Origin: Plasmodiophora brassicae | Taxonomy: Eukaryota | NCBI GenBank assembly: GCA_036867785.1 | Contig: CP145423.1 | Span: 62,001 to 126,000 of the forward strand | Reading direction: 5' to 3' | DNA: 64,000 nt | Shown: positions 6,307-63,956 of the stretch, in pieces | Numbering within the stretch: position 1 is the stretch's first letter | Layout of the letters: each line of letters opens with the position of its first letter | Notes under the pieces: generated by a model | The model's database searches: none | Told to the model about the DNA's origin: nothing | What the model saw: only the letters and a program-made list of their open reading frames with translations | Program-made: the position numbers and the translations under genes

Positions 6307-6313
6307 TGACTCA
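6307..6313. promoter_or_regulatory. TGACTCA (AP-1/GCN4-type bZIP site) upstream of His-rich gene 1
   Basis: Exact match ~90 bp upstream of the ATG at 6220; recurs before every His-rich gene. Confidence 0.6.
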
Positions 6314-6373
6314 TCCAGGTGACTCCAGCGCCCTGGTGAGCCGGTCTCAATCGGCGGCGACTCGTCTGTATTG

Positions 6374-6925
6374 CTACGTGTGCGGGCCTCGCCCCGATCG
6401 TCGTGCCAGACTCGTGTCAAGGCGAGCAACGGGTCGGTAGGCGCCGGCGAAGGCGCGGGCGATGCCGGCGGCGATCTCGTCGAGATCGTCGTGCAGGACG
6501 TCAGGGGACGCACCGCAGCAGGCGCAACGGTTCGCGCGCCTCGAGCAGGACCCGCACAGGGATACGCTCGACCAGGCCGTGGCGATCGTCGACGCGCAAC
6601 TCGTACACGACGCCTGCGACCGTCCCAGGCAGACTCGCTTCGGGCCGCGATGCCGATGGCACAGTGCGTACTCATCGTCGTTGGGGATATCGACCGATGG
6701 GCACGGCTGCACCCGCAGGGCGCCGTCGTCGGGCGTGGCCGGCGACTTCACGACGATGCTGTGCCGCTGGGCGGGATTGGCGTAATTGACAACCAGGTCA
6801 GCTCTGGCCAGGAACGGTGCCGGTTTGCCCTTGCTTGGCGTCGTGTCGTCATCCGGTGGGACTTTTGCGATGTTGTCGTCGGCGTCCTCGACGACCGCCG
6901 GAGGAACCACGCCGACATCGCCCAT
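6374..6925 (-). CDS. Small protein with CRIPT-like Cys-rich zinc-binding motif
   Basis: MGDVGVV... ORF containing CTSC-x12-CGSC-x6-CACC (three CxxC pairs, CRIPT-like spacing). Confidence 0.6.
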   Translation of the reverse strand: MGDVGVVPPAVVEDADDNIAKVPPDDDTTPSKGKPAPFLARADLVVNYANPAQRHSIVVKSPATPDDGALRVQPCPSVDIPNDDEYALCHRHRGPKRVCLGRSQASCTSCASTIATAWSSVSLCGSCSRRANRCACCGASPDVLHDDLDEIAAGIARAFAGAYRPVARLDTSLARRSGRGPHT

Positions 6926-7129
6926 TATGCAGACTGTATATAGGTCAGGTACCATAGGCGATCCGCTCGCCCGGTGGCAACCCTTTGCTGACGACGATGT
7001 ACATAGGACGGGAATGCTCCTCGTCAGCAATGGCACGTCTGTGATGCACCGCAGGTGTCCGATGCGGTACGGTGGACGGCAACACGGGTGGAGAATCTCG
7101 CCCGATCGATCGGTAGACGGTCGGTGACG

Positions 7130-7575
7130 ATGGGCGAACGCGACGACCAGCGCCTTCTACCTGTTGCTGATGTCGCTCACGCCGCTGCCGAGCCTACACC
7201 GGCGGCAACGAGCGCCGCCATGGAAGTGAAACTCAGGACCGTGACGGGGCAGACGCTGGTCGTCCACGACGTCCAGGACGGCATGACAACCGACGATCTC
7301 AAGGTACGCGTTTCTGTTGCACCTCCGCCCCCCAGGCGATCGTCCTGATTGGGGGTTCGTTCCGCAGGGGCTCGTCGAGCGCCAGCACATGGTGCCAAGC
7401 GACCTGCAGCGACTGATCTTCAACGGGCGCGAATTGCAGGCCGGCGACGTCATCAAGGATGCTGGCATCCAGGCAGGGTCGATCCTGCATATCGCCATAC
7501 GCCAGGTGCGCGGAACGTATTCCAGCCTATCCTGATGACACCGGGCCCGGTCAGCCCTGATGAACCTCGCAGCAG

Positions 7576-7617
<42 letters not shown>

Positions 7618-8521
7618 CCGCTGGGCACGACTGCGGCCGACGGCGACGCCAGCACGGTACGAGTGCTGGCTGTGATAGAAGGAGACAGCGCCCGGCAACC
7701 TGACCCATACGCGATTGTCCGTTCAGCGAGTTGTGGGTGTGGGTTCCCTGACGGCCGGCCCCGCCAATCCCTTCTTGATGAGCATGTTCATCATCACGGT
7801 GCGTGCTGTGCCACGGCCCTCTATCGTCCACGTTCAATCGCCCAACCATCGACGTCTGGATCGTGCAGGGACCGGACCGCCGCGAACCCGTCCAGGACGT
7901 CCACGTGCCCTCGACTCGTCTCGCCTATCGCGTGCGGACCCTGGTGCGTTGCACATGGCCCGTGCCTCGTGCGCCCGCGCTGACTGTGTGCGGGATCGAA
8001 GGCGTTCACGTCTGCATTCCTGTACCTCGTCCTGATGATGCTCAGCCTGGTGAGCGCGGGATCGCGCGTGACTGTTTGCGGGTCGACTGTGTCGTGACAC
8101 GTCGCCTGGGACAGACGTGGGCCCCGTTCCTGCTCGGGTCCATCCTGGGCATATACGGCGCCAGCCAGCGCAAACCCGACTGGATCACGATCGTAAGGAG
8201 ACCCAGTGGGCAACGATACCATACACCCGGGTGCTGACCGCCGCTCTGTCCCCTGCTGTCGACCAGTTCGCGATCCTCGAGTTCATCTCCGGGATCCTGC
8301 TCACGGCCCTGGCGTACGCGCTGGGGACATCAGGCGACTCGACGTCGGGCGCGATCGCCCCGATCATCCTGATGATCGCCGGGTTCCGCTTCTACGTCGT
8401 CAGCCAGGGCGTCCGCCTCCTGAAGGAGCTGCGGCACGGGCCGCCGCTGCCGACCACGATCCCACGCGCCCGGCCCGAACCGGATCGCGCCCCGCACCTC
8501 CAGACGGCGCATCGTGTATAA
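7130..8521 (+). CDS. Ubiquitin-like domain membrane protein (multi-exon)
   Basis: UBL 'MEVKLRTVTGQTLVV...QRLIFNGRELQAGDVIKDAGIQAGSILHIAIR' split by the intron 7304-7367. A poly-Ala linker follows, then several hydrophobic exons ending at TAA 8521. Confidence 0.8.
7580..7615 (+). repeat. (CAG)12 microsatellite, read as poly-Ala in the spliced frame
   Basis: Direct sequence. Splicing to the acceptor at 7572 gives QAPAAAAAAAA...GPLG. Confidence 0.85.
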
Positions 8522-8592
8522 ACACGTCGGTCCTGGGGGCGACTGGGTCGCCATTCGATCACGACGGTACGCGTACTGCCTAGCGCCTGGGG

Positions 8593-15356: not shown

Positions 15357-16481
15357 TCATTTCAGAGTGAATGCAAAGCGGCCGACCAGGGGTAGGTGGT
15401 CACTGCTGTGAATAGCATGGACGGCGGCGACGAACTCGAGGTTGGCCTGGTCGGGGTCGAACAGGATCTGATCCGTCCACGAGACGGGCCTGGTCGCGTC
15501 GTAGCAGACCCGGCCGGGGCCACAGTTGCCATCGGCCACGGGAGCATCCCAGTCGCGAACCTTCAGCAACCTGCCGATGTCGATGCAGGCGCTGGTGTCC
15601 ATGCACAGGCGGGTGTCAGGTCGAACCAGCAGTTTATAGGTTGGCAGGTGCAGGCCAGCCGTGCAGACCAGTCCACGCAGGCTGTTCACACGGCCGACCA
15701 ACGCCCGCGTCATCTCATCCTGGGCGACGAGATCGTGCCACGAGTGGCACTTCGCAACAATGTCGGACACGTTCGCCGTTGTCGTCGGGGAATCCGTTCG
15801 CGAATTCAGATCGCCGATCAGGAATCGGGCACTGCAACCGTCCCACATGGGCCCGAGCTGACCGCCCCGGAAGGCATGTCGCAGGCAAGCCACGCGCGAC
15901 TTCATGTTGGCGCTGGGCAGATGCGCCGACAGGAAGCAGAGGCGGTGGCCGGACCCGGTGGTTAATGCCACGGCGGATATCGCTTTCTCGCCTCGCGACC
16001 ACCACCGACAGTAGGACGTCCCCGATGTCACCCGTGGGATGGTGCTGTTGTTGGACGATGCGCGTCGCAAGACGACGACCCCGGATAGGTGATGGCCCCA
16101 GGTGCGGACGTGTTTGGGGACCCACTGGCCCCATCGTGACGTTGCCTCGCCGACAACGTCGTATCGCGTGCGTCGCTCCGCGAAATAGTGATCGTTGACG
16201 GCGTCGCGAATCCAGTCGGCGACCGCCCGCCGGGGTCGTATGCGCGCCTCCTGTACGCCGAACACGATCAGCTCGGGGAGGCTGTCCGCGTCGTCGTCGG
16301 CGGGCAGGCCGTGCAGGGCGAACCGCAGCGCCCTGGCGACCTCGACGCCAGACGGGAACCCATCCGCCAGGTTCCAGGTCAGCAGGACGACCCGCCCAGG
16401 GGCCCCAGCAGCGATCGCCGACGCAAGGCACACGGCGACGGAGACGACGACGACGCCCCTGCAACGGGTAGCGCCGCCCAT
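15357..16481 (-). CDS. Secreted inositol polyphosphate 5-phosphatase-like EEP enzyme (copy A)
   Basis: Signal peptide MGGATRCRGVVVVSVAVCLASAIA. Motifs LLTWNLA, FGVQEA, FLSAHL, IGDLNSR, PTYK, PVSWTDQI, SDHLP. Intronless. Confidence 0.85.
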   Translation of the reverse strand: MGGATRCRGVVVVSVAVCLASAIAAGAPGRVVLLTWNLADGFPSGVEVARALRFALHGLPADDDADSLPELIVFGVQEARIRPRRAVADWIRDAVNDHYFAERRTRYDVVGEATSRWGQWVPKHVRTWGHHLSGVVVLRRASSNNSTIPRVTSGTSYCRWWSRGEKAISAVALTTGSGHRLCFLSAHLPSANMKSRVACLRHAFRGGQLGPMWDGCSARFLIGDLNSRTDSPTTTANVSDIVAKCHSWHDLVAQDEMTRALVGRVNSLRGLVCTAGLHLPTYKLLVRPDTRLCMDTSACIDIGRLLKVRDWDAPVADGNCGPGRVCYDATRPVSWTDQILFDPDQANLEFVAAVHAIHSSDHLPLVGRFAFTLK

Positions 16482-16569
16482 CGACGTCCGCGCGCGACAC
16501 AAAAGCGCCTTCGGACAACGAACGGGAGCGGTGCTCCTCCTACGTACCAGGCGCGGCGGTTTATACATT

Positions 16570-17673
16570 TCAGTCCAGATCGACGGTGAAGCGGCCGGCC
16601 AGCGGCAGGTGGTCACTGGTATGGACGCCGTGGACGGCGGCGACGAACTCGAGGTCGGCCCGGTCGGGGTCGAACAGGATCTGATCCGTCCAGGAGACGG
16701 GCCTGGTCGGGTCGTAGCAGATCCGGTCCTCGCCGCAGTTGCCGTCGGCGTGCGGGACGTCCCAGCGGTGTACGGCGAGGAACCGTTGCACGTCGACGCA
16801 GGTGCTGGCCGTTAGGCAAACGTTGCTGTTGTGTCGCAGCATCTTGTAGGTGGGAAGGTGGAGGCCAGCCGTGCCCGTCAATCCTCGCATGTGGGCGACC
16901 TTGCCGGTCAGCTCGTGCGTCATTTCGTCGCGGGCAACCAACGCGTCCCAGGACGGGCGTCGGTCGGCAATGTCAAAGACGTGGGCCGCTGCGGTCCTGC
17001 CGGTTCGCGAATTGAAGTCGCCGATCATGAATCGTGTATCGCAGGCGTCCCACAACTGCCCGAGTTCGTCGTGTTGGAATCCGTGCTGGAGGCACGCGAG
17101 TCGCGCGTCGCTCGTTGCGCTCGGCAGGTGCGCCGACAGGAAGCAGAATCGACGAGGTCCCGCCGTTAACGTCACCAGGGTGATGGCCTTCTCGCCTCGT
17201 GACCACCTGCGGCAGTACGATGTTTTAGCTGTCATGCGCGTGGCCACCTTGGACGATTCGCGTCGCAGGACAACGATGCCCGATAGGAAATGACCCTTTT
17301 CCTGGAAACGCCTGGGGATCCATCCTCCCCAACGCGACGCTGCTGCACCAACCACTTCGTACCGGGTTTGACGAGCCTTGAAGTAGTGATCATTGATCGC
17401 GTCGCGAACCCATTGAGCAATGCGCTGCTCGGATAGGTTCGCCTCCTGAAGGCCAATAACAATGAATTCGGGCAGGGAGCTCGAATCATCTGGCAGGCCG
17501 TGTAGGGCGAATTGCATCGCCTGCCTGATCTCGGCACCGTCCGGGAACCCATCGGCCAGGTTCCACGTCAGCAAGACAATTCGCGCGGATCCCTTGTCGA
17601 GCGTCGACCTCGACAGACCATAGGCGACGCAGGTAAGGGCAACAATGTTGCGAAATACATAAGCGCTCCCCAT
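16570..17673 (-). CDS. Secreted inositol polyphosphate 5-phosphatase-like EEP enzyme (copy B)
   Basis: Signal-like MGSAYVFRNIVALTCVAYGLS. Same motif set (IGLQEA, IGDFNSR, PTYK, PVSWTDQI, SDHLP). Tandem paralog of copy A. Confidence 0.87.
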   Translation of the reverse strand: MGSAYVFRNIVALTCVAYGLSRSTLDKGSARIVLLTWNLADGFPDGAEIRQAMQFALHGLPDDSSSLPEFIVIGLQEANLSEQRIAQWVRDAINDHYFKARQTRYEVVGAAASRWGGWIPRRFQEKGHFLSGIVVLRRESSKVATRMTAKTSYCRRWSRGEKAITLVTLTAGPRRFCFLSAHLPSATSDARLACLQHGFQHDELGQLWDACDTRFMIGDFNSRTGRTAAAHVFDIADRRPSWDALVARDEMTHELTGKVAHMRGLTGTAGLHLPTYKMLRHNSNVCLTASTCVDVQRFLAVHRWDVPHADGNCGEDRICYDPTRPVSWTDQILFDPDRADLEFVAAVHGVHTSDHLPLAGRFTVDLD

Positions 17674-18163
17674 TGCTTGCAGCGTCTCCCGTCTGGTGGC
17701 GTCGAATAGTTACAAGTGTGCGTTCGCTGGAACGATGGCCCTGGGTGCCGGACCCGCTTCCGTCCACATGCCATGACAACTGATTCCAGTATCGATCCAG
17801 GTCGTCAGGCAGCCAACGATTAATCCATCGACGGCGAAAGCACGCGCCATACTGTGGCAGTGTCCACAGCAAAGCAGCGAGTGTGTTAAGTTGTGACAAT
17901 CCAAAGCAACGTATCGACAGAGAGATGTTCGGCGCCCGGCTCGCGGCTTCAACGACCACAGACCAGTGCCCGATGTACACCCTTGCAATTGCGCTTCAGT
18001 TCGTCGTGGTGCAATGCGTATCGCCACTCTAAAGTCGGTGTACAATGTAGGCATGCTGTGCGCGCCGATGCGACATCGGAGATGACCCACGTTCCAGCCC
18101 ATCCGTACGCCCTACGTGGAGGACGACAGGACCATGTCAACAGGGGAGGACCAGTCGGAACCG

Positions 18164-18170
18164 TGACTCA
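18164..18170. promoter_or_regulatory. TGACTCA upstream of His/Asp-rich gene 2
   Basis: Exact match ~120 bp before ATG 18288. Confidence 0.6.
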
Positions 18171-18287
18171 CGATCCGGGCGAAATTCGTGCCAGTGAACA
18201 CGGGCGCCCCCATTCCAGCAATCGTCCTGCTGACTTTGGTCGGTCGTCGCGATCACCATCGTCCCGTCCCCCGCCCTGCCGACACGA

Positions 18288-18779
18288 ATGCCACTCCACA
18301 TTCGCGTGCCGCAATGCATCCTGCTGCTGTTGTTGGGGGCCCTGGCCATCAGGTCCGGTTTCGGCCAGGACCTGTTCGGCCTAGGCCCCGACGACGACGA
18401 CGACGACGCGTATGCGCATGATGTCGAACACGACCACGGGTACGAGCACGACCTGCGCAATGACGACAAGGTCGCCGATCAGGCGCACACCACCGGGCAA
18501 CACGTTGCCACGGGGGTCGTAACCACGACGGCCACAGGGACAGCAGAGCACATCGACGAGAGCCACTCCCGGCAAGATCGATCCCACGATCACCTCCGGC
18601 TGAAAGCCAAAGCTGAGACGGACGCCAGCGACGCATTGGCGACGAACGCGGCCGCACCGGTCGGCGACGTGCACGCACCGCTGCCGGGCAACGAACACCC
18701 GGGAACCATCGCACCACCCGTCCTCGAGAACAGAGCCCTGGCGCCACACGCCCAATGGACTGGACTGCATGGCATGTAG
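18288..18779 (+). CDS. Secreted His/Asp-rich protein 2 (163 aa; 3' end uncertain)
   Basis: MPLHIRVPQCILLLLLGALAIRSGFG signal, then DDDDDDAYAHDVEHDHGYEHD... and a Thr-rich segment. Confidence 0.7.
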   Translation: MPLHIRVPQCILLLLLGALAIRSGFGQDLFGLGPDDDDDDAYAHDVEHDHGYEHDLRNDDKVADQAHTTGQHVATGVVTTTATGTAEHIDESHSRQDRSHDHLRLKAKAETDASDALATNAAAPVGDVHAPLPGNEHPGTIAPPVLENRALAPHAQWTGLHGM

Positions 18780-19195
18780 GCGCGGGTTCTGGACCGCAAT
18801 CGTTCCACGCCGACCTGGGGCCACACGGTCCTCCAATGAGAGCAGATGCAGGCCGGGCACACGCGCTTCCGGGCGCACGTGTGCCTCGAGACGCAGGCCG
18901 GGCCCGCCTTCTTGGACAATACAGCATTGGCGTCCTCTGCAAATGCGTTCCAGCTGGCCGGTCGCCCCTCACCCGGTTACGTGAGCTCTAGTGCCCTGCG
19001 ACGCCTGTGCAGGTCGTTGCCTATGCTGAACTTGACGAACGCCCCCCGCCATCGTCTGTGCGTTCGTGAGCGCACATGGCCTGGTCAAGCACCGGGGACG
19101 TCCCGTACAGTCGACCCAGATCGATGGACAACGGACAGTCGGATGGGTTGGCCGCTGTTTGTCGACGTGGTTGTTATTAGACAGCAGGTTAGAGA

Positions 19196-19666
19196 TCAGT
19201 GGTGGTCGCCATGGTCGCGGAACGCTCTGTACTCGCGCAGCGCCCTCATCTCGTCCTCGCTGAGGAACTCGGTGCTGTGCGGGATGCCGTCCTCGTGGTG
19301 CATGTGATGGTCGACGTCGGGTTCAGCGTGGTGCGGGTGGTGACGAGGGTGATGGTCCTCGTCGATGTGGTGATGGTCGTGCATTGCGTGCCATTCGTCG
19401 GCCGGCGACGGATGGTGCTCGTGATGGTGGTCATCGTGGTGGTGATCATCGTGATGGCGATCCTCGTGATGGTGGTGGTGTTCGGGCAGGTCGAAGAGCG
19501 TCAGCGCGTCGCCGTCGGGCATGGGGAAATCACGTAGCGCATACACGGCATGGTTATCGTTATCAACGTGGCCATCGCCGTGATCGACCCAGATCAGCGT
19601 GTCACCGGCCAGCACGACGCCGACCAGCACCGCCAGCGCCGCCGTCGTCACCAGCATCTTCCTCAT
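19196..19666 (-). CDS. Secreted His/Asp-rich protein 3 (156 aa)
   Basis: MRKMLVTTAALAVLVGVVLA signal. Mature 'GDTLIWVDHGDGHVD...EHHHHHEDRHHDDHHHDDHHHEHH'. No Cys. Confidence 0.85.
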   Translation of the reverse strand: MRKMLVTTAALAVLVGVVLAGDTLIWVDHGDGHVDNDNHAVYALRDFPMPDGDALTLFDLPEHHHHHEDRHHDDHHHDDHHHEHHPSPADEWHAMHDHHHIDEDHHPRHHPHHAEPDVDHHMHHEDGIPHSTEFLSEDEMRALREYRAFRDHGDHH

Positions 19667-19777
19667 GCCTGCCTGCGAGACACCGATTCGATATAATAGA
19701 CAATTACGGGAGTGATGACGCACACGCGAGTCGAGTCACACCTAGATTACGTGCACGGTGTGTCGGGACGAGCCAGT

Positions 19778-19784
19778 TGACTCA
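19778..19784. promoter_or_regulatory. TGACTCA in the divergent promoter between His-rich gene 3 and the ankyrin gene
   Basis: Exact match ~112 bp from ATG 19666 and ~116 bp from ATG 19900. Confidence 0.55.
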
Positions 19785-19899
19785 TGGGGTCACACACGCG
19801 CCAGCCACCGGTGGAGTACGTATGGAGAATCCCCTGGATTCGGACAGGGCCGGGTGTGATCACATCGAGGTACCCGGTCGCTGTCAGTAAAGGGGGGCC

Positions 19900-21273
19900 A
19901 TGTCGGAGTCGGTGTTCCAGGCGGCCGCCCGAGGCGATGTTCGCATGCTGCGCCTTCTGATCCGCAAGGGCCACATGGATGACGCCGACGACGAGGGCAA
20001 CACGCCGCTGATGATTGCAACGCGATGCAATCGACCGCAGGCCGTCGCCATCCTCCTCGAGCGCCAGGCGAACGTCAACCAGGTCAATGCGCATGGCGAC
20101 GGCGCGTTGCACATTGCGGCCCAGAAGGGTAACGTTGAAGGGGAGCTGCGAGGGAAGGCACCTGTCGCTGACGTTGCTTGCCGCACGCCCAGGGATCATG
20201 CATGTATCGATTATTCGCATGCTGATCGAAGCGGGCGCGAACGTCACCTCGCAGAACGCGGACAGGGAGTCGCCCGTGTCGCTGATAGCGAAGAACACGA
20301 AGCTGGCCCGGCATCCGACGATAGCGCCCCTGCTGGAGAAGCGCCTCGCCGCCAATCGCCTACGTCGAAAGGTTTGGCGGGAACCTGTCGTTCGTAGGGT
20401 GCTTGCTACGACGCCCTTACGACAGTGGCCAGTCAACGATGCGTCTGTCGAGCATGGGGCGCTACCAGAAACAGGTCGAGCAGCTCCAGAAGAAGAAGAA
20501 GGAGAACGCGTTGAACGTTTACTCGCGAGCGGAAGACATGACGAGCTTCAAACAGATCTGGGAGATCCTGACCAGGTGGGACGGGCGCTGCTCTCGTGGC
20601 CGGTCGTTACATTTACAGGTGCACCGTTGTGTGTGTAGGTCCCCGGCGGAATCGTCGACGACGCTGGCAGCCGAGACGCTGACACCCTTCTTCAACCTGC
20701 TGGGGGCATCACTGAGCCCGGTAACCCGATCGCATAGACCGCACGACGCCGGTGCCTCTGATCAACCCGTTTTCAGCCCGAGACGGCGGCCCTCTTCGAC
20801 CTGCTGGACGACGACCAGGACGGTTCCGTGGACTTTAGCGACTTCTACATGTCGATGGTCGGCCGGGCACGCTGCTGTCATAGCTTCGTACACACGTGTG
20901 TGAATGGGGCACACGTTGTCAGATGTGGCGCAAACCGCCGGACGCGCTGGAGTCTGCCGCCATCGACCTGCCGTTCGAGGTCCTCGACTCGTGCGCCGGG
21001 ACGCAGGACCCGACCGGCATCATCGCGAAGTCGTCCTACAAGGCGGCGCAGCGCGCCCTGGGCCCCGTGTTCTTCGCCGACAGCGAACGCGACACGTTCC
21101 GCATCCTGTCCAGCCTCGTGCCCGGCTACGCCAACGCCGTCCGCCTCGACACGCACGCGGGCATCGACCGCAAGCTCTTCCTTCGCATCGTCAGCGGCCG
21201 CGCCGAGCTCCAACTTCGGAAACCGGCCCAGACGCAGGGCGCACCGCAAGCACAATCGTCATCGATCCAATAG
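19900..21273 (+). CDS. Ankyrin-repeat plus EF-hand protein (multi-exon)
   Basis: Ankyrin motifs 'GNTPLMIAT', 'GDGALHIAAQKG', 'LIEAGANVT'. EF-hand 'DDDQDGSVDFSDF' at ~20806-20845. Several GT-AG introns. Confidence 0.8.
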
Positions 21274-21529
21274 ACGCGTATAATAGTAACGTATCGGTGT
21301 GTCACCCCTTTTCCCTGTGATAAACTCTGTCGAGCGACACTGATTGAAGCGGACGAACATTGCTGGCGGCCGGTGCACCGCTGGCGGTTGCATATCATCG
21401 GCAGGACGGCATACAGTGGGCGATGTGGAGCGACAGTGGATGCGGTCAGACGACGGCCCGTTGCGTCACGCGGGCGAATCAGCGATCACGGCGGGGCCTG
21501 TGTGCGTCACGCTGGGGGAATCCCGTATG

Positions 21530-21536
21530 TGACTCA
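21530..21536. promoter_or_regulatory. TGACTCA upstream of His-rich gene 4 (plus TGCGTCA variants at 21462 and 21503)
   Basis: Exact match ~130 bp before ATG 21666. Confidence 0.6.
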
Positions 21537-21665
21537 GCTGTCCTGCATGACCATTCGTCATGGTCATAACCCTGTTTATCGATTTATATCGACGACTGCC
21601 CGACGCCCACCGCGCCTCTGCACGCGTAAGTAATTAGCCCCACCCAGAAGCAGATTGCAGACCCG

Positions 21666-22548
21666 ATGGCGAGGTTGGTGTTGCTGTTCCCGCTCCTGGT
21701 CGCGCTCCTGGCGGCCGCCGCCGTGGCCGACGGCGAGCACGCCGAAGAGATGCTGAACAGGAAGGATTCCGACGCGGTTCGTGGGGCGAACCACGTCGAC
21801 ATGCACGATTTCGAGCAGGGGGCGCACCGGGGCGCGAACTCGATCGACCAGATCGGGGGCGACAAGAGCACGGTGCAGACGACGGCCCAGCTGACGGCGG
21901 CGATGACCGCCTCGGACGCCCACGCCGACTCGTACTCGCAGCTGCTGGACGACCAGCACGAGGTCGAGGCCGAGACGGAGCACGACCACGAAGGTGGCCG
22001 CGACTCGCAGCTCGGCGTACACCATGGCGTTAACAGCGACGTCGACGTCAACGGCGATGCCCACCTTCGTCACGACATGGTCGCGCCGCACCGCCTCCAC
22101 CAGAACGACTGGGATGGCATCGAGGTACGCCCCCGCTCGACACGTGGTTGCTGCTGCCTCTGGGGTTCTGACGAGTCGCGTTTCGCTTCAGTACGAACAG
22201 ATGCACGGGCCGCACGGCTGGGGCCACGAGCACGCGGGCCACTACCACAACGACCTGCTGGGCGAGGAGGATGCCGGCGCCATGCTGATGCACGGCGGCG
22301 ACGAGTTCAACCACGATGGCCCGCACGACCAGTGGTACGGGCACGGGCACGGGCACGACGAGTACGGGCAGCACGGGTGGGACGGCGAGCACATGCACCC
22401 GATGGCCGACGACGGGTTCGTCTACGACCACCGGCACGGGGACCCGTACATGCACCACCATGGCCATGGCGGCGACTTCCACGGCATGCACGGCCATGGC
22501 GGCGAGTTCGAGGGCGACATGATGCCCTGGATCGCCGGCGGGCACTAA
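21666..22548 (+). CDS. Secreted His/Gly/Asp-rich protein 4 (exons 21666-22124 and 22192-22548)
   Basis: Signal MARLVLLFPLLVALLAAAAVA. The phase-0 GT-AG intron 22125-22191 joins to YEQMHGPHGWGHEHAGHYH...WIAGGH*. No Cys. Confidence 0.88.
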
Positions 22549-22954
22549 ATGGGCACCGAACGTCGCCGTCAACGCCCCGCCATAGACGCCGAGTACGATG
22601 TACCCCTCCTCCACCATCCAATAAAATCAAGACGACCCCCATGAGGTCTACCAACACTATCACGGCCGCGCCGTCGCTGGCGGCAACCAGGATGACGCCT
22701 GCTCTTAGCGAACCTGCTGTCACTGCTAGAAACTGGCCGGGACATCTGATCAGGTATCAGTATCACTAACGACGTCAGGCACTGCCACGAGGACGACAGC
22801 AACGGCAGCCCCCGATGGCCTCCCGCGTAACACGATTGAGCGGATGCGGCTGACCGAACAGCTGTCCAGTTCGCGTTCATGGGCCGAGAGCGGCTCGCGC
22901 TGGTGCCACGCTGCCAGAACGGGGTGGTTTACGGGAGGCCCGACGACCGCTGGT

Positions 22955-22997
22955 TGACTCAAGCCAAAGGGATTCTGTGATCTCTCATGTTGAGTCA
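22955..22997. promoter_or_regulatory. Two AP-1-type sites (TGACTCA 22955-22961, TGAGTCA 22991-22997)
   Basis: Exact matches ~155-200 bp upstream of ATG 23153. Confidence 0.55.
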
Positions 22998-23152
22998 ACG
23001 CAGGGACAGAGTGCCATGACGCTGACTAGGTACGAGTTTTCGTTGGCGAGTGACGCGTTGGCCCCATTCCAGTAATTATCTCAGACGGACGACGTACCTG
23101 CACACACACACACCCACACACACTGCCGAACATCCTATCTCGTCAATCAGTA

Positions 23153-23986
23153 ATGCCAGTCCCGCGTTCGGCCATCGCGCTCGGCCTGCTGGCAGCCACC
23201 GCCCTCATCGCCGTCACCGTGGATTCGCACGAGTACCACGACGGCCCCGCCATCAACGTCAACATTGCTCAGAAGACGAGTGACGAATTCAACAAGGGCG
23301 GATCAGGCGGCAGCAGGTCCAGGTCGTCGTCCGCGTCCAAGTCAGTAATGTGTTCAGCGGCCAAGAAGACCATTCACGTCGACCCGGCGAAGGTCACCGA
23401 TTACATCCAAGCGGGTGCCACGCTGGGCAAATGCGTCGCCGTCCCGAAGCCGGCACCAGCACAGGCGTCGGCGGCGCCTGCCGATCCACCGGGTGCGGAT
23501 CCTGAACCCGAGCCAGTTCCAGTGCCAACGCCGGCACCGGCAACGACGAAATCGCCAATGGTCCCCGTCTGCATCCCGCACCTTGGTGGGTCCACGATCA
23601 TGGTCCCGTCCGCCACGTTGCAGGCGTTCCTATCCAAGGGTGCCGTCCTGGGTAACTGCACAGCGATGAGCACAGTGGCACCGACGCCGGCACCGACGCC
23701 GGCGCCGACGCCCAAACCGACGACACCGGCGCCAACGACGACGATGCCGACAACGCCGCCGACGTTGTTGCCAACGACGCAGCCGACGCTGATGCCGCAA
23801 ATCATTCGGATCGGTGGTGAGGACTGTGAGTCGGGCGGCGACAATGACCCGACGCCGTACGGGATGGGCAATCGACGCGGGCGCGTCGAGATGCCCGTTC
23901 GAGCTGGAGCGCCGATGACGGCGGGTGGCCATGACGTGATTCCACAGGCGGCCGCCCCAAGCGTCCCCCGAATCCTGTCCCCGTGA
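23153..23986 (+). CDS. Secreted Pro/Thr-rich (mucin-like) protein with two small Cys-bounded repeats
   Basis: Signal MPVPRSAIALGLLAATALIAVTVDS. Repeats 'VMC...TIHV...YIQAGATLGKC' and 'VPVC...TIMV...FLSKGAVLGNC'. PTPA/PTT linkers. Confidence 0.82.
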   Translation: MPVPRSAIALGLLAATALIAVTVDSHEYHDGPAINVNIAQKTSDEFNKGGSGGSRSRSSSASKSVMCSAAKKTIHVDPAKVTDYIQAGATLGKCVAVPKPAPAQASAAPADPPGADPEPEPVPVPTPAPATTKSPMVPVCIPHLGGSTIMVPSATLQAFLSKGAVLGNCTAMSTVAPTPAPTPAPTPKPTTPAPTTTMPTTPPTLLPTTQPTLMPQIIRIGGEDCESGGDNDPTPYGMGNRRGRVEMPVRAGAPMTAGGHDVIPQAAAPSVPRILSP

Positions 23987-24860
23987 TCGATAGCATCCCA
24001 CACAATTACTATTAAAACCAGAAGGCGTGCCATCAGCCATGACGTTGTGCCGTTCGTGTTGAGGAAGCCCTGAACGCAGGCCAACTGAGCATGTGGTGCT
24101 ACTTGCAAGACAGCGGGCCTACAGTGCTCCTCGTTGGCAGTATTGGCCATGAAAGGTCTGCGATGGTGGGTAGCGATGTGATCGGAAATCACAACGCGAC
24201 GTCGCAGGCACGAAATGAGGACACGTGCACAACCCTGAAGTACATCGTCGGCATCCAATTCGGGCCAGCCGGCAAGAACACGACTGATACGAATGCGCAG
24301 CCGACGACGTACTCGAGGGCCATGCCCATGGCGTCTCCCCAGGATCGGCAACCTCTTGTCCATCGATACTGATGAAGGCGGTTTAAATCTCGCACAAACG
24401 TGAATCGCAGAGCAATTGTGTGGTGCAATGCGACTGTCTGTCGTGCTTGGTGAAGGTGGCCCGGTCGACTATACACTCGTGTCGAGGCGGTGCGTGCTAA
24501 TCGAACCCAACGCCAGCGGTGCGGAACCCTTGACCAGTTGGAACCTTCCGGAAAACACAACACGTACACGCGACACCATTGTCTTGTGTTCTGCGGTAGC
24601 CTTCAACTACTTATGGACCCGTGGCCGAGGCAAAACCGGGGCCACGACTGAATCAGCAATCTGCAGCCGGACAGTCAACGAACGCTGGGACAATGGTCCA
24701 TGGAGACGCCGACACGCGTCCGAAAGGAACGCCGGAGAAACGGCAGAGCATCAGGCCGCGCGGATGCCGTGGCGGAGTGCGCCACCCGCGTACCTAATAT
24801 TCAATACAGAAGGTAGACTGGAACGCTCCGCCTGGAAAGTCCGTGACGGACCAGCCGATC

Positions 24861-25527
24861 ATGTCGGTCACGGTGCACACGTCTGCAGGCGACCTGAAGA
24901 TCGAGATAGCATGTGACCTGGTTCCCGGCGCCGCCAAGGTGTGTAATCAGGCGTGTCTGGTATTATAACATGCACGTTGACGCGGGAGCAGAATTTCCTG
25001 GCGTTGTGCGCGTCGGGTGCATACGATAACACGCTGTTCCATCGCGTCATCCCTGGGTTCATGGTCCAGGGCGGCGATCCGACTGGCACTGGCAAAGGAG
25101 GACGTGCCTGGAACGGGGATTTCCTTAAAGATGAGTTTCATGCTTCCCTAAGGGTTCATTTCACCATTATGATGATCGTTCATAGGCGTAGGAGTTCTGA
25201 CTGGGTCGCAATGTACCGTAGCATGACCGACGCGGGGTCGTTGCATTCGCCAACCGCGGCCCGAACACGAACGCGTCCCAGTTCTACATCACGTTCGCCG
25301 CGGCGCCCCATCTCGACAATACGTCGACCATCTTTGGAAGGTTCGGGACCGTTGTGGCCGCGCGCCTGACGACTTGGCCTAATGTGCTGTGCAGTCTCAT
25401 TGACGGGTTCTCCACTCTGGATGCTATTGAAAAGGTGCCCATCGGTGATAAGCACCGACCCGTTACTGATATCGTCATATCGTCGGTCACGATTCATGCC
25501 AACCCGATCGCCGATCTGGAAGCCTGA
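24861..25527 (+). CDS. PPIL3: Cyclophilin-type peptidyl-prolyl isomerase PPIL3 (4 exons)
   Basis: [15 protein letters not shown]...[37 protein letters not shown]...NASQFYITF...VTIHANPIA; three introns. Confidence 0.93.
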
Positions 25528-25666
25528 TGCCTACTTATTGTTCCAGTGGTCACCGTAAGCCGATGGTTTGTCAGACGTTCGGTTATCGTGACCTGCTACT
25601 TGTAAAATATAACCTGCGTAAAGACAAAGGTGCTGTTCGACTGTTTCGTGAGAGTGTATGTAGTAC

Positions 25667-25948
25667 CTAATAGAATGACTTGACGATGGCGTGGTGAGCT
25701 TTCATTACGGCTGAATTCCACGCCATGGCCGCACGATCGAGGACGCGCGTCGGTATGGGCGTCGTCGAACTGTACACGTCGCCGATCGAGGGCCGGCGCG
25801 GCCCGCCCGATTCGGGGCGCCGTCGAGGCTGTACCCGGTCCAGAATCGACTGGTGCGCCGCGAAGATCGTCTCCCGCATCGACAGATACATGACGGCGCC
25901 GGCCGCCCCGCCTAGCGCCAGCCCCTGTGCCGCAACGCGAACCGACAT
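25667..25948 (-). CDS. Small membrane protein, MICOS Mic12/Mic13(QIL1)-like
   Basis: 93 aa. N-terminal TM with GxxxG (ALGGAAGAVMYL) and C-terminal 'AWNSAV' WN motif, the two hallmarks of Mic12/Mic13. Confidence 0.5.
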   Translation of the reverse strand: MSVRVAAQGLALGGAAGAVMYLSMRETIFAAHQSILDRVQPRRRPESGGPRRPSIGDVYSSTTPIPTRVLDRAAMAWNSAVMKAHHAIVKSFY

Positions 25949-26544
25949 CGTGTGGTGCCCCGGTTCAGGTACCAAAAAAAGACGCTCGCTGGCGATGCGC
26001 CCTCGTTGTTGTCCGAATCGTGCAGAGCGTGATCATTAAGCGCCAAGCACTGACGATGTGTACGTACCAACCAGGCCTTCACGGTAGCGCTGCATGGGTG
26101 TGAACCTCTCGCCGTATACATGGTCCTACGTAATGGTGGGCCTTCAGTGTACTGTGTATTAATTACGCAGTAGGCGCGAGGTTACAGCAGGCAGATCAGA
26201 CACAGGCGCATCGTGCGTGGCGGATGCCCTCTTCGAGATTCTCGGCTGGGATCCTGCGAACGAAACGACACTGCAAAACCTTGAACGTGAGGAATAGCAG
26301 GCAACAGCTGATAGGATATGTTTCCCCAATGACTGGGTGGCGTCAGACCGCTTCAGCAGGTGCTCTGGTTTCTGGCGCTGCCTCCTGGGCGCAGTCGCGC
26401 GGGATCCCCCGCAGGACCGACCCTGGCTGTTGACGTTACCTCGCCGAGCACTATTCGACTCACAGCAGAACCTAAGCTGTCCTGTGAAACACTTTGGCTC
26501 TGCTCCTTGACGCTATCCAGTTCGTGACTGAGTTGGAAGCTGCG

Positions 26545-27641: not shown

Positions 27642-28017
27642 TTACATGTACCCGAAAGCCTCTCATGCTGCTCTGTTAATAAAGCCGCGGGTTTTGAGGC
27701 AATATGGCGTCTCACGTCTCGAACGGTACGTAGCAAATCTGCCAGAACCCGCTAGGACGGGTGTCAGCCGGCGCAGGCGCATGCTTTGAGTTGTGTACTT
27801 GTGCTGCAAGGCGAAAGTGCTCCTATTGACATTAACCCCAACGACGAGGACGCTGATACGTTGAGCCTACGGCATCATCGGGGAACACCTCGCAACGTCG
27901 TGCTGCCGGAGTCGTTGCTCGCTTCGTTGCTCGCTCTCGTCCTGAATAGTCCTGCTCGTGATATACTACAGCAGTTGGCATTCGTTGAACGATCAAGGCA
28001 GGATTTTATGAGGGCGG

Positions 28018-28347
28018 TCAGTGGTACCGGTCGTGGTGGTGATCAAAGTGCGGGTAACCGTCTTCGTCGTCGTACCCGTGTGCCATGCCCATCATCTCAT
28101 GGGCGGAAAGCGGGTGCCCGTGCCCGTGGTGTTCGCCGTCCCCGTAGTCATCGTCGTGGTTGTGAGGGACTGGGGCGTGATCCTGCACGTCAATGTCAAC
28201 CTCGACCTCGTGCTCCTTGCCTTCGTTGTGGGCTGCGTCCTCTCGATGATGCTTGTCCTGCCGGAAGTCGTCCTCGTCGGCGACGACCAGCGATGCACCA
28301 AGCAGCAGAGCAAACGCGACAGCAGCAACGGCAACACCGACCTTCAT
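28018..28347 (-). CDS. Secreted His/Asp-rich protein 5 (109 aa)
   Basis: Signal MKVGVAVAAVAFALLLGASLVVA. Mature DEDDFRQDKHH...EVEVDIDVQDH...HHHDRYH*. No Cys. Confidence 0.85.
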   Translation of the reverse strand: MKVGVAVAAVAFALLLGASLVVADEDDFRQDKHHREDAAHNEGKEHEVEVDIDVQDHAPVPHNHDDDYGDGEHHGHGHPLSAHEMMGMAHGYDDEDGYPHFDHHHDRYH

Positions 28348-28414
28348 GATTGATGATCTCTTTGAACAGTGGCGTACCTGGGCGGGGCCGCACCACCGGA
28401 ACCGACCAAGTGCA

Positions 28415-28848
28415 TGACTCATCTGGGGCAGCGTGACATCACGCCGATGCTGTCTCGAACTACCGGCAATGGGAGCTGGCAGAGAGAGAGAGAGAGAGAC
28501 AAGTTCCATTGGTGTTGGCCTGCGTTAAAAGCGCGAAACGCATAAAAACTAAACTAAACTAACTGCCGTTGGTGTCTCTCCAAAGTGCAATGCAATCTGG
28601 AAATCGTACTGGAAACGTGCTGTCTTGTACGATGAAGGCGAGCGCAGCACCGTCCCTTTGCCATGAGGTCATGTTGGACGCTGCCTTTATGCTTTCGTTT
28701 CGTCGGAACGACGCGACACGTTTCGATTGGCGTCATTGTACAGTACAAGTTAGAGCACGTCTCGCCGCCGATAAGCCGGATATACTCAGAGTCCATAATG
28801 AAGGGACGATGAGAGTTGCAGTAGTGTGACTCACGACATCGTGAGTCA
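28415..28848. promoter_or_regulatory. Divergent promoter of His-rich genes 5 and 6, with three AP-1-type sites and one CRE-like site
   Basis: TGACTCA 28415-28421, TGACATCACGCC 28434-28445, TGACTCA 28827-28833, TGAGTCA 28842-28848. (GA)n microsatellite at ~28481-28499. Confidence 0.62.
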
Positions 28849-28928: not shown

Positions 28929-29462
28929 ATGGCGATAATGTCGACAAGAGTTGCCCTTGCACTGGCCGTTATCGTCGGTGTTGTTGCTGTATCGGGTTTC
29001 GATACCCACCACGATGACGGGTACCATCACGACCCCTACGCGCACCACGACGACGGGCTCCATCATCACGGTGACGGGCATCACCACGATCCGCACGAAC
29101 ATTATGACGATGACCATGATCACGAGGATTCGTCGCAAGGCCTTGATGTCCACGTTCATGTTCGGCGTCATGATCTAGCAGGTGAGAAGGACGGCCAACG
29201 TCTCGACCATGGCGTAGATACCGATGCGCATCATGGCCCCGAACACTACGACGAACATGGCGAATGGATGCCAGGACACGCCTTGCATGGACATGACGAT
29301 GGGCACCATGCTGACCATGGTGAGCATCACGACCCGCACCACGATCTCCACCACGAATACGACACGTTCCCGTTCGAGCACACACATCACGACCACGATC
29401 ACGATCACGACGATGACGCGTGGATGGACCACCTGTTGGGCCATGACGGCCACTTCCACTGA
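28929..29462 (+). CDS. Secreted His/Asp-rich protein 6 (177 aa)
   Basis: Signal MAIMSTRVALALAVIVGVVAVSG. Mature FDTHHDDGYHHD...LDVHVHVRRHD...HDHDHDHDDD...GHFH*. No Cys. Confidence 0.87.
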   Translation: MAIMSTRVALALAVIVGVVAVSGFDTHHDDGYHHDPYAHHDDGLHHHGDGHHHDPHEHYDDDHDHEDSSQGLDVHVHVRRHDLAGEKDGQRLDHGVDTDAHHGPEHYDEHGEWMPGHALHGHDDGHHADHGEHHDPHHDLHHEYDTFPFEHTHHDHDHDHDDDAWMDHLLGHDGHFH

Positions 29463-48820: not shown

Positions 48821-48891
48821 ATTCTGGACCGGAAAAACACCACTTGCGCGTCGGCGAGCAGGTGGCGTGAGACGCGCCGTCCTTTACCCAC

Positions 48892-57294: not shown

Positions 57295-58269
57295 GATCGG
57301 TCGCCGCTAGACGAGCGCGCGCGCGCGCGTGTGCCAGTAATATGCTCTGAAATCGCGGGTCAGAGTGCCCCGTGACGCATGCGCGGCCACCGCCAGAGCG
57401 CCCCCCACAGACCCGACGGTCGATGCGTCTCGCCCGTCGTCGCTGTGATGATGCGGAACGGTGCCCCTTCCCGGGCTCCGGACTGGATCTGACGCCTGGG
57501 CGCGACCGTTTTTGTTGCGGGGACGACAACAAATGGCGACACGTCATCAGCCCCGTTTTTGTTGGCGTTTTGGTGTACGTGATCTGGTCTAGGTTCGTCG
57601 ACAGACCCGGGCCACCGCCAACAACAAAGGAACCCTTGACAGGGGCGGGAAATTTGAGCGGCAACTGGGCCGTTTGCCTTGGCACATGTGCCGCACGATT
57701 CGTCTCATTTCGCGAGGAACGTATATTCAGTAGATTGGTCCGGTTGGTTATGGTACGGGTCGGTAAGTCAAATTGAAGTCCGTGGAAGTGCGCAACATGC
57801 CGCGCGCGGACTCATTTAGCGCGACGGCCGACTTGCGTTTGAGTCACGCTCTGACTGGGCGAGTCGGTCCACGCGCCGCGCGACTGCCCATTTCGAATTG
57901 TGAATCACCGGCTCGCGAGGCGTCTCGTACGTCTTGACGACCAGGTTGTGGACACAGCTCTGAGCACTCTTAGCCGCTCTGTCGATCCTCTGGCTCGCAT
58001 GCTATGTAGAATCGGGACACTGGTGCGACCTCGAGTCCGCAGAGTGCCTCAGATCCGCAATCATAGGGCGCCCCGCACATATACCGCGCCGCACTGCCGT
58101 ACGGCGTCCGTGGCGCACCAATCCCATTTGCATCATTCTGCTATCTGGTCTTGTCTCGTCTTGTCCGTGTCCTGCGTGCTAATCGCTAGTTTTACGAATA
58201 GCGTTTGAAGACGCTCGCGACCGCCTCAGAGTCGAAACGGGTGAAACGCAGACTCACAGGCCGACAGTC

Positions 58270-59990: not shown

Positions 59991-61313
59991 TCAACCATAA
60001 AAGTGAGCACCCGGGTGGGATGTGTTGCTGGGCGGTAACTGGTTGTAATCTCCTGCAGCAATATTACTTCCAGAGAACAGGACCGGGGCGCCCATGCGAA
60101 TTTCTTGCGCGTGCTCGAGCAGGAACGCACTCTGAGGCAGGCTGGCCTGGCGAGCTAGTTCGAGTGCCGTCCTGTGATACGTTCCTGTTGCGTGGATGTC
60201 GACGCGATGATCCCGAATGAGCATCATGATTACGTCAGGGCAGCTTCCCCAGGTCTGCAAGGCAGCTACCTGCAATGGTGTCCAGTAGGCATCTCCCACG
60301 AGTGCAGGTTCATTAACCAGGATGCTGTTAGATTTCAGCAATTCCGAAACGGCACCGATTTTACATAGCTTGGCGGCTAGTTCGAGCGGTGTCTCCCCGC
60401 CGTTTTCTTGGCGCCCTTTCGTATTGACGTCAATCTCGGGAGTGTTAACCAGCAAACGGATGACGTCAGAACAGTCATTGAGGACCGCCCAGTGGAGCGC
60501 CGTATAGCCATGGCGACCGGGATCATTGATGGCGAGGCCAGGCACATGACGTACAAGCAGGTCGACAACAAATTCATCACCAGAGTACGCTGCGCTGTGC
60601 AGGACGTTGCCGAAGATGGGGTCCCACTCGACACGATTCACCATGTTGATATCACCTCCCATGCGGGCAAGAATTTCGCGAATACGCTTGAATACCGCCT
60701 TCTGTGCAACCGAGCGCCCGTTTACGAACCTTCCCAGCCGGACGAGGCCAACATGGAACCGAAACGCTTTTTCGTCGACGGCTTCCTTCAGCAGACCATA
60801 ACCGGGTTCAGCATTGGCGTCGTCGGGGTGGGAAGCAATTAGAGCGACGCTAAGCGTCCTCATTTGGAGGTTGTGAGCCAACTTAACCAGTGAACAGACC
60901 CGGCCGAAAGAGATTTCGTTTCTGCTCGAAAGCCAGGTCGCGGCCTGGTCAACCTGATATGACGTCATCGCTGTCTATCAGGAGACCATAACGTACGAGC
61001 TTTCGATAAATTGGACGTTTACCTCATAGGTACCCGGACGGTTACCAGAAATGAACTGACGTGTTAGCTCCAAGTCAATCCAGGACAACGTATCCAGGGC
61101 AATGAAGTTATCGTTGATAAGGAGGGCGTATCGAATCATTTCGCGTAGCACAGGAGAATGCCAGGAAGCAGCCTCAACGTCGATGTCGGCTGTGTACAAA
61201 CATTCCTTGGAGCGCAGCTTAAAAGCGTCGGCACTCCCCGCACAGAGAACCGCGAGCACGAGCAGGGGAGATGATGCGACACCAGCGACTCGAACGCGAG
61301 TCCGGGTCGACAT
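59991..61313 (-). CDS. Signal peptide + BTB/SKP1-like + ankyrin-repeat protein (candidate effector)
   Basis: Exon 1 'PLLVLAVLCAGSADA|FKLRSKE...AASWHSPVLREMI'. Exon 2 'SLVKLAHNLQMRTL' then ankyrins (GYTALHWAV, GETPLELAA, WTPLQVAA, RTALELA). Confidence 0.8.
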
Positions 61314-62159: not shown

Positions 62160-62251
62160 GGCTGCGTGACCGAGTTGGTTAAGGTGGTAGATTCGAATCC
62201 TCGAAACATCTACTGGGCTTGCCCGCGCGCGTTCGAATCGCGTCGAAGCCT
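62160..62251 (+). tRNA. tRNA-Ser(CGA) with a 10-nt insertion at the canonical intron site; one acceptor-stem mismatch
   Basis: Identical to the 62569 copy except the insert TCCTCGAAAC (62198-62207) after position 37 and T>G at position 5. T-run terminator follows. Confidence 0.8.
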
Positions 62252-62568
62252 ACACTTTTTTGCCCATCGTCTCAAGTCATCGACCATCGTGGGACGACTG
62301 ACTGACTTGCGTCGTGTCTTGGAAACCGAATATGGATGGGATATGCGAATCCATCTGAACACGGCTGCAGGGTAGTAGGCATCAGAAGAAGAACTGATCA
62401 GACTTGTACCTGATGCTCGCCGTCAAACGCTGCTCTCTCACCCGTAAATGGGCGATCAGATGCAAGCCGAACATCAGATGCAAGCCGAATACAGCGCGCC
62501 GCCGCAACGAGGTTTAATAATAAACTTTGATAAAAAACTTTGCAAACCGTCCAAAGTGAGCGTGAGCT

Positions 62569-62650
62569 GGCTTCGTGACCGAGTTGGTTAAGGTGGTAGA
62601 TTCGAAATCTACTGGGCTTGCCCGCGCGCGTTCGAATCGCGTCGAAGCCT
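62569..62650 (+). tRNA. tRNA-Ser(CGA), intronless
   Basis: Acceptor GGCTTCG/CGAAGCC, anticodon arm GTAGA-TTCGAAA-TCTAC, variable arm GGGC-TT-GCCC, GTTCGAATC, T7 terminator. Confidence 0.95.
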
Positions 62651-62993
62651 TTGTTTTTTTGCTATTGATACAATGCTTCTCCGCTAAAAAAAACGATCGC
62701 CAACATCTGATGATGGGCACCCCCTCGGGTCGTAGGCCACTTTGGGCGGCGGCGACGATGTACGTTTTTCCCGATCCGTGTCATTGCTCTGACGAAAGTG
62801 GGGCAACTACATGGTCCTTGACGAAATGTGAAGAGATGGAGGACAAGTAAGGCTACCAGATGCCCGGGTCACTTGGGTCCAACTGGACTGTGGGTTCCTC
62901 GGGGAATGCTTCACATCACGCTGGCATACGGACGGTGGGCGGCATGGTTTATTCGGATCGTCCAGATAGAAACCCACATAGCCGCCGTTACAA

Positions 62994-63598
62994 TTACGCC
63001 CAGTGGCCGCTGCACACAAATCTCATCAGAAAGGGAGCTGACCGTCGTCCAGTGCCTCACGTACTGATGCCCATCGGTGGCGCCTTCGTAATGGTGGTCG
63101 CTGTTGGCAGCCAGTCAGATATGCATACACAACGTGGGCCACGTTACTTTGCACGTACTGTTCACCATCGGCGTCGTCGTGATATTCATGTTCGTGATCC
63201 TCCTCCTCGTCATCCTCCTCGCCCTGCCATCAGTGTGGTCAGTCTCTTTCACCATATACATGCCGTGCCGGCCACACTTACATCGTGATGGTAGCCGTGA
63301 GAGTGCGCGTCGCCTATCCAGAACCAGGACGATCAGAGTCACATTGCCACATTCACGCAGCAACGCAACGAACCGTGGTGATGGCGGTCGTGCTCCGCCC
63401 ACTCATCGCCGTGCACGTCTCGACTGCGAAACGCGTCACTTACCCGCATATAGACTGCGCCCTAAGATTCACTTACTGGTCGATATGGCCGTCACCGTGG
63501 AACACCTTCAGGCGCGTGTCGTCGGCGTCGACCCCGTTGAGGAACATCATGAGTACGAGGGCGATAGCCAGGAGCAACCCAAATGGGGACGACAACAT
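62994..63598 (-). CDS. Secreted His/Asp-rich protein 7 (6 exons, 106 aa; not in the ORF track)
   Basis: Exons 63598-63477, 63423-63374, 63313-63282, 63223-63159, 63100-63065, 63009-62994, joined by GT-AG introns of 53-60 nt, give MLSSPFGLLLAIALVLMMFLNGVDA-DDTRLKVFHGDGHIDHRDVHGDEWAEHDRHHHGDAHSHGYHHDGEEDDEEEDHEHEYHDDADGEHDHHYEGATDGHHGHWA*. Confidence 0.88.
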
Positions 63599-63676
63599 TT
63601 CGGGATTTTCGTGAATGGCCACCGCATTGCAAGCGCAGCTCGCCACGATCCGACCTCAACGGTGTGTCACGGCGCA

Positions 63677-63956
63677 TGACATCACGCCTCGACCAGTAGC
63701 CAGTTTGTAATGGTCTTCAGTGCTTCTGCAATGCCGAAAGCGGCTTGAAGTCATTGCATTCTTTTCTGGCCAAGGTACTTCTAAGACGATGTATAGACTA
63801 CGCCAGCCCTAGCGCGCGCGCGTTGGACAGCGGTGTACGTAGCTGGGCAGCTTCGTGTGCCCCCACCTTGGTAATGCGTAGTACACTAGTAAAGGTTTAT
63901 GCAGGCGGCCTGCCGAGTTCTCCGACCACGATCGACACGTCACTGCGCGTGACTCA
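63677..63956. promoter_or_regulatory. Upstream elements of His-rich gene 7: TGACATCACGCC (63677-63688) and TGACTCA (63950-63956)
   Basis: The 12-mer is identical to that upstream of gene 5 at a similar distance. Exact AP-1-type site ~350 bp upstream of the ATG. Confidence 0.55.

Follow-up and report, generated by a model that had tools for sequence, protein, structure and literature searches.

A proximal TGA(C/G)TCA element upstream of histidine-rich secreted protein genes of Plasmodiophora brassicae and its probable recognition by a bZIP factor

The stretch of DNA analysed here (hereafter the window) comprises 64 kb of the Plasmodiophora brassicae contig CP145423.1 (positions 62,001 to 126,000) and carries a group of genes encoding secreted, histidine-rich (His-rich) proteins, preceded by the heptamer TGA(C/G)TCA, or TGASTCA. 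This word is the consensus of the yeast Gcn4 and animal AP-1 (Jun/Fos) factors, which belong to the basic leucine zipper (bZIP) class, while TGACGTCA is the ATF/CREB site. An exhaustive scan revealed exactly 11 TGASTCA sites in the window, at the coordinates reported in a first-pass annotation of this DNA and nowhere else, and ten of them precede either His-rich genes (seven) or the gene of a Pro/Thr-rich mucin-like protein (one). The genes and the sites, with distances measured to the ATG start codon, are located as follows (window coordinates).

4937..6220, minus strand: g1, secreted His/Asp-rich protein of 427 amino acids, single open reading frame (ORF)
6307..6313: TGASTCA, 86 bp upstream of g1
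18164..18170: TGASTCA in its best context, CGTGACTCACG, 117 bp upstream of g2
18288..18779, plus strand: g2, secreted protein of 163 amino acids, 9% His, with an exact protein match in the collection
19196..19666, minus strand: g3, secreted His-rich protein of 156 amino acids, HGDGH[VI]D family, covered by assembled contigs of runs X1, X12 and X18
19778..19784: TGASTCA, 111 bp upstream of g3
21530..21536: TGASTCA, 129 bp upstream of g4
21666..22548, plus strand: g4, secreted His-rich protein, two exons with an intron at 22125-22191, GT..AG joint in 4 of 4 runs
22955..22997: TGASTCA pair (22955 and 22991), 191 and 155 bp upstream of the mucin-like gene
23153..23986, plus strand: mucin-like gene, secreted Pro/Thr-rich protein of 277 amino acids, not His-rich, covered by assembled contigs
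28018..28347, minus strand: g5, secreted His-rich protein of 109 amino acids, with an exact protein match in the collection
28415..28421: TGASTCA, 67 bp upstream of g5
28827..28848: TGASTCA pair (28827 and 28842), 95 and 80 bp upstream of g6
28929..29462, plus strand: g6, secreted His-rich protein of 177 amino acids, covered by assembled contigs of runs X1 and X18
57840..57846: TGASTCA without an adjoining His-rich gene; the nearest recognised gene encodes an EDR2_C-domain protein on the minus strand
63060..63598, minus strand: gene 7, multi-exon gene of a secreted protein, HGDGH family
63950..63956: TGASTCA in a divergent promoter, 351 bp upstream of gene 7 and 117 bp upstream of gene 8

These distances, from 67 to 129 bp for g1 to g6 and longer for the mucin-like gene (155 and 191 bp) and gene 7 (351 bp), agree with the ranges that had been proposed, and the site at 57840 is indeed the sole copy away from the set (the start of the EDR2_C-domain gene is not fixed, with candidate ATGs at 57294 and 57547). 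The description of the set as His-rich applies to most of the window genes, but g2 contains only 9% His. The site at 63950 had been taken as a pointer to gene 7, and it does lie upstream of this gene; however, a gene 7 paralog on the plus strand, gene 8, starts 74 bases beyond the window end (ATG at window position 64074), so that the site belongs to a shared divergent promoter and is closer to gene 8. The exons and the 3' end of gene 7 were derived from comparison with its paralog, not from RNA. No Pfam family was matched by g1 or by the mucin-like protein, and a protein search with g3 returned one unnamed relative.

The number of sites in the window is ordinary for its composition: dinucleotide shuffles contained 8.6 sites on average (standard deviation 2.8), and 21 of 100 had at least 11. 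Relative to the genome, where 1373 sites in 25.28 Mb correspond to 3.5 expected per 64 kb, the window shows three times the rate (Poisson P 0.001). The shuffle test of the total is not significant; the signal lies in the position of the sites and not in their count.

His-rich secreted genes outside the window were gathered by His/Asp codon patterns, protein search and inspection of neighbouring DNA, the motif itself not being used, and gene starts were called from signal-peptide-like N-termini. The first codon-pattern search gave 30 loci, from which two genes were kept, the others being poly-His runs in non-secreted or antisense frames; of the 20 regions given by the second, seven yielded eight genes and 13 were removed by a His/acid filter. 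The resulting list is incomplete, leaving out 61 of the 161 and 9 of the 27 matches of two codon-pattern searches. TGASTCA was found 44-248 bp upstream of the ATG in 12 of the 15 outside genes, which are distributed over seven contigs (11 of 14 if gene 8, with its previously known site, is excluded), compared with 23 of 1320 background tiles of 300 bp, taken from 400 kb; TGACGTCA occurs in 13 of these tiles. The proposed upstream motif was thus borne out on genes that the first-pass annotation had not seen, and its estimate of about a 2% chance per promoter was about right. Its statement that the site precedes every His-rich gene is true of the window, but three of the outside genes lack the exact site, two of them carrying TGACGTCA at 29-115 bp instead. 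Nor is the motif common to most promoters, as 1373 sites stand against more than 10,000 gene models. A 16th His-rich gene, found afterwards, has TGASTCA at 158 bp, and when the 7-mers of 22 promoters (7 of them from the window) were counted without bias against the 1320 tiles, TGACTCA ranked first. The related word TGA(A/T)TCA occurs in 9 of the 22 His-rich promoters and in 28 of the 1320 tiles, and is likely a weaker form of the site. It is also present 57 bp upstream of two CE4 paralogs (L144 and L145; C4:494-502 kb).

Across the genome, 62 TGASTCA pairs lie within 3-33 bp, where 2.3 are expected and the reversed word gives 6; a commoner palindrome taken as a control gives 13 pairs and its reverse 4. 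Among the 50 pairs listed (of 62), 16 are copies of one repeat and 34 are not. Mixed pairs of TGACGTCA and TGASTCA were found 20 times, against 1 for the control. Of 46 half-sites in the promoters, 42 have C or G two positions outside the core; this preference was noticed after the fact, yet it holds genome-wide, both in SDTGASTCAHS (461 sites, with 238 of the control word and an expectation of 245-349) and in CGTGASTCACG (65 against 11 for the control and 6-16 expected, a 4-11-fold excess), the enrichment climbing as flanks are added to the core. Both the clustering and the flank preference exceed composition and are signs of selection, and from the excess of flanked sites the number of working sites may be put at one to a few hundred. 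Given the upstream position, the pair clustering and the flank enrichment, TGASTCA is a real, position-specific upstream element of the His-rich secreted genes.

The repeat encountered among the pairs has 153-bp direct ends about 1.6 kb apart and bears a TGASTCA pair right after a purine-rich tract (copies L010:1379-1531, L011, L014 and L015; C3, also C7, C9, C11 and C13). It looks like a small long terminal repeat (LTR) element with the sites at the LTR start. A TGACGTCA pair within the coding region of an ankyrin gene (window 60425-60468) is probably due to chance.

The His-rich genes form at least two paralog families, clustered on C15 and C9, and the LTR-like repeat makes up a good part of the listed pairs, as would be expected if duplicated genes had inherited one promoter or if a repeat had spread the word. 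Because of the paralogy, shared promoters were merged for the test, as were paralog pairs lying outside contig C15, after which 6 of 8 independent units carry the site (P 1.6e-4 with the rate set at a ceiling of 0.14, which assumes that all 1373 sites lie in promoters of about 10,000 genes; the models numbered above 10,500). Promoters with the motif masked do not align, save for shared divergent DNA and one weak 27-bp match, and inherited promoters were ruled out on these grounds; spread by the LTR-like repeat was ruled out in turn, as no His-rich promoter matches it. Moreover, unrelated tyrosinase, CE4, DOMON and mucin-like families bear the site at the same distance. Seven bases kept while the rest of the promoter diverged imply selection, and shared ancestry is regarded as a highly improbable source of the pattern.

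The motif-bearing set is much wider than the His-rich genes, which are its most completely covered part, and also includes tyrosinases, some chitin deacetylases and other secreted or membrane protein genes. The first-pass annotation had proposed a set of His-rich and mucin-like secreted genes, and a restriction to these has to be abandoned: tyrosinase and CE4 genes carry the site as well, and no His-rich gene follows any of 20 further CGTGASTCACG sites sampled from the top of the list. A signal-peptide-like start lies 38-99 bp beyond 10 of these 20 sites, while control words show one in 5 of 38 cases (P 0.004, with heuristic calling of the starts), and the named genes behind them encode a CAP protein, a lectin, an MFS transporter and a CCCH zinc finger, alongside many unknowns. 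Paired sites precede small glycosylphosphatidylinositol (GPI)-like ORFs and DOMON proteins. Four families were tested for the site: tyrosinases, CE4 deacetylases, chitin synthases, whose starts are approximate, and fasciclins. Among the tyrosinases, 4 of 7 genes carry it 102-216 bp upstream, or 3 of 6 once the gene that had motivated this test is set aside, and a fifth has TGACGTCA; TGASTCA also occurs in 5 of 13 CE4 genes (from 14 of 22 matched loci) at 108-170 bp, all five among the eight best-scoring. Only 1 of 16 chitin synthase upstream regions and none of the 4 fasciclin genes, two of which belong to the published late class, have it, by which a regulon of the whole spore-wall biosynthesis was ruled out.

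Several individual genes behind such sites deserve mention. The small secreted GPI-like ORFs behind paired sites (L003:1619-1807, L004:1632-1970 and L008:1699-1980) are known only as unnamed Logan proteins and may be missing from annotations. L167:7992-8819 (minus strand) encodes a secreted protein similar to the g1/g4 family and has both TGASTCA and TGACGTCA upstream; its source name, 'Tetratricopeptide repeat protein 38', has no Pfam match behind it and is probably wrong. A secreted ORF (L194:541-951; C3:107107) begins 64 bp past a top-scoring site and has a tyrosinase-like N-terminus by eye, with no Pfam match in the part examined, and a gene of a secreted SUEL lectin (L206:565-951; C5:515349) lies 86 bp past another. 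The published late class includes one PF02140 gene, which might correspond to this lectin.

The variety of genes behind the 20 top sites, with no His-rich one among them, and the lack of the site in most chitin synthases and in the late-class fasciclins might also be accounted for by a general strong-promoter or stress site for secreted and membrane protein genes, with no special link to spores. Against this, the site is found at only 1 of 18 signal-peptide-like starts in the 400 kb background, the other secreted genes of the window (two paralogs of the endonuclease/exonuclease/phosphatase (EEP) family and the ankyrin gene) have no proximal site, and PBRA_002200, a motif-bearing member of a His-rich family, is placed in the late, spore-formation class in the accessible part of the published work. 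A general site of this kind seems rather unlikely. The two EEP phosphatase paralogs are tandem secreted genes at 15360-17673 on the minus strand, the domain being recognised in the second. The window also contains a tRNA-Ser(CGA) gene (62569-62650) and, 400 bp upstream, a near copy of it (approximately 62160-62260) with a short insertion near the anticodon, which was not called by ARAGORN.

The search with Pfam bZIP models identified four clear genes above the cut-off, as well as weaker ones. The signature of the bZIP basic region, with Asn235 among its positions, is N-x2-A-A-x2-S/C-R, and C9:362997 is the only protein with a full N-x2-A-A-x2-S-R region; that of C1:617855 is N-R-A-S-A-Q-Q-S-R, while the invariant Asn is replaced by Glu in two bZIPs and by Lys in two (L019 at C11:566079, L021 at C8:926714, L022 and L023). 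The bZIP candidates of the genome also include C5:1121627 and C12:1152535. The PDB matches of C9:362997 are GCN4 and c-Fos only, and no relative of similar length was detected outside the species. In the promoters, half-sites are present at both AP-1 and CRE spacing, and overlapping or abutting TGA(C/G) half-sites are the classic bZIP pattern. Since both spacings occur and a GCN4-like bZIP is encoded, sequence evidence makes it likely that TGASTCA is bound by a bZIP factor, and C9:362997 may be proposed as its reader, with slightly less than an even chance of being the right one.

The mechanism may be envisaged as follows. TGA(C/G)TCA, with the best form (C/G)(G/T/A)TGA(C/G)TCA(C/A/T)(C/G), is a proximal promoter element of P. 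brassicae, usually 45-250 bp upstream of the ATG, in either orientation and often doubled or accompanied by TGACGTCA. A bZIP dimer would occupy it with one subunit per TGA(C/G) half-site and, once bound, would presumably activate its targets, which may number from one to a few hundred and among which genes of secreted and membrane proteins are frequent. As a whole, a proximal TGASTCA element read by a bZIP factor that switches on a set of secreted and membrane protein genes is the probable explanation of the data.

A number of points weigh against this interpretation. Over the whole genome the 7-mer shows no enrichment (0.75-1.2 times the Markov expectation), so that most of the 1373 copies may be due to chance, and TGACGTCA pairs alone are not clearly above the control (14 against 9). 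One of the three His-rich genes without the exact site also lacks TGACGTCA, 8 of the 13 CE4 genes have no exact site, and chitin synthases and fasciclins are nearly or wholly devoid of it; the P values at the ceiling rate are modest (0.04 for tyrosinases and 0.03 for CE4), four families having been tried. The PDB matches of C9:362997 are weak (E 0.007-0.01), and a basic region alone does not determine site preference. Finally, the sense strand reads TGAGTCA 19 times and TGACTCA 7 times. Such a strand bias could be produced if a non-bZIP protein or an RNA-level signal accounted for the word, but both orientations occur, one site serves two divergent genes and the palindromic half-sites are found at both classic bZIP spacings, which makes this explanation very unlikely.

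It is possible, though not favoured, that two or more bZIPs or their heterodimers divide TGASTCA and TGACGTCA between them, in which case a small network would take the place of a single regulon. The Pfam cut-off is exceeded by at least four bZIP matches with differing basic regions, including N-R-A-S-A-Q-Q-S-R and two with Glu for Asn, and the two words often share one promoter. On the other hand, TGACGTCA replaces TGASTCA among paralogs (C4a has both, C4b TGACGTCA only), and both words have the same CGTGAC flank, as one flexible dimer would give. GCN4 is known to bind both half-site spacings, which also speaks against a two-bZIP network.

Expression cover was taken from assembled contigs of 4 of the 24 listed runs, none of them catalogued as RNA, mapped to window 16500-30500, a section that excludes g1 and gene 7. 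In this section g3, g4, g6 and the mucin-like gene have cover by spliced contigs, the GT..AG joints indicating spliced RNA. The contigs of g3, g4 and g6 are deep in X18, where those of two housekeeping genes are shallow, and the order is reversed in X12 and X20, while g2, g5 and the mucin-like gene depart from this pattern; as contig depth cannot rank genes and absent cover proves nothing, these values were counted neither for nor against co-expression. In X1 and X12 a single contig (21579-23989) spans both g4 and the mucin-like gene, together with the site pair between them, which may reflect overlapping transcripts or read-through.

As to the stage at which the bZIP-read element would operate, the site is present in 1 of 3 mappable late-class genes of the published list, and, as two late-class fasciclins are without it, it can mark no more than a portion of the late genes. 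On balance, the motif programme seems somewhat more apt to run late, around resting-spore formation, than at another time. The expression tables in the available portion of PMC8595600 gave no match for the IDs tried, nor did a search of the literature, PBRA_002205-2209 were not found in the available part of the Schwelm PDF, and the accessible sections of PMC9751365 yielded nothing on expression of these genes. According to PMC4815078, one CE4 gene rises in weeks 3-6, as spores are produced, and the rise of another falls in week 1.

In PMC12503489, two of the His-rich families are grouped with proteins of Polymyxa betae and rated as disordered. Such conservation across genera would fit a structural role better than a host-specific one. 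Further accessions in those groups are presumably from Spongospora. A Spongospora match for PBRA_002200 is given in PMC4471660, which also, in the sections seen, reports P. brassicae to be without histidine synthesis. Squid beak and insect cuticle are hardened by His-rich proteins, chitin and catechol oxidase (PMC9999432, in the part available), and this chemistry suggests the idea of a hardened spore wall. By this analogy, a single GCN4-like bZIP might serve in plasmodiophorids as the switch of resting-spore wall maturation, inducing a hardening kit of His-rich secreted proteins, tyrosinases and membrane-anchored chitin deacetylases. The chitin wall would then be hardened by histidine-catechol cross-linking or metal binding, with histidine taken from the host, and this bZIP switch would also set the timing of the LTR-like element, which has paired sites. 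This extended scheme is speculative and, taken in full, unlikely.

If the set does build the resting-spore wall, it would bear on the years-long survival of the pathogen in soil and offer a target for its control. P. brassicae is unculturable, and the site, the target list and the candidate factor together open its stage control to tests in vitro and in yeast. Small secreted ORFs that are nameless in the collection are flagged by the site too, and the results suggest that many 'orphan effector candidates' may be structural. A metagenome scan for relatives gave no matching locus, and no P. brassicae promoter element, regulon or His-rich family was found in the literature searched, subscription journals and bioRxiv supplements lying outside the search. 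The word itself is a textbook one, but its use and its target set in the plasmodiophorid lineage appear to be undescribed.

Compared with Gcn4 and AP-1 sites, the element of P. brassicae has an identical core word and palindromic half-sites, occurs at both spacings and is likewise proximal and often multiple. It differs in its CG..CG flanks and in its targets, which are secreted and membrane protein genes and not those of amino-acid biosynthesis. The GCN4 motif of cereal seed storage protein genes is read by Opaque-2/RISBZ1, and there the same word drives a stage-specific set of abundant secretory-pathway proteins, although in plant endosperm and with unrelated target proteins. The resemblance to squid beak and insect cuticle consists in His-rich disordered secreted proteins, tyrosinases and chitin deacetylases, but the proteins of P. 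brassicae are His/Asp-rich, acidic and without Gly/His/Tyr pentapeptide repeats, so that it is an analogy only. The Phytophthora infestans bZIP PITG_04908 binds TGACTCA in protein-binding microarrays, and the oomycete bZIPs that vary at the invariant Asn have Cys, Val or Tyr there, according to the accessible part of PMC11267843. Although PITG_04908 is an oomycete protein, with no His-rich target set described in that part of the source, it comes, like P. brassicae, from the SAR lineage, recognises the same word and belongs to a family in which variants at the invariant Asn are found too.

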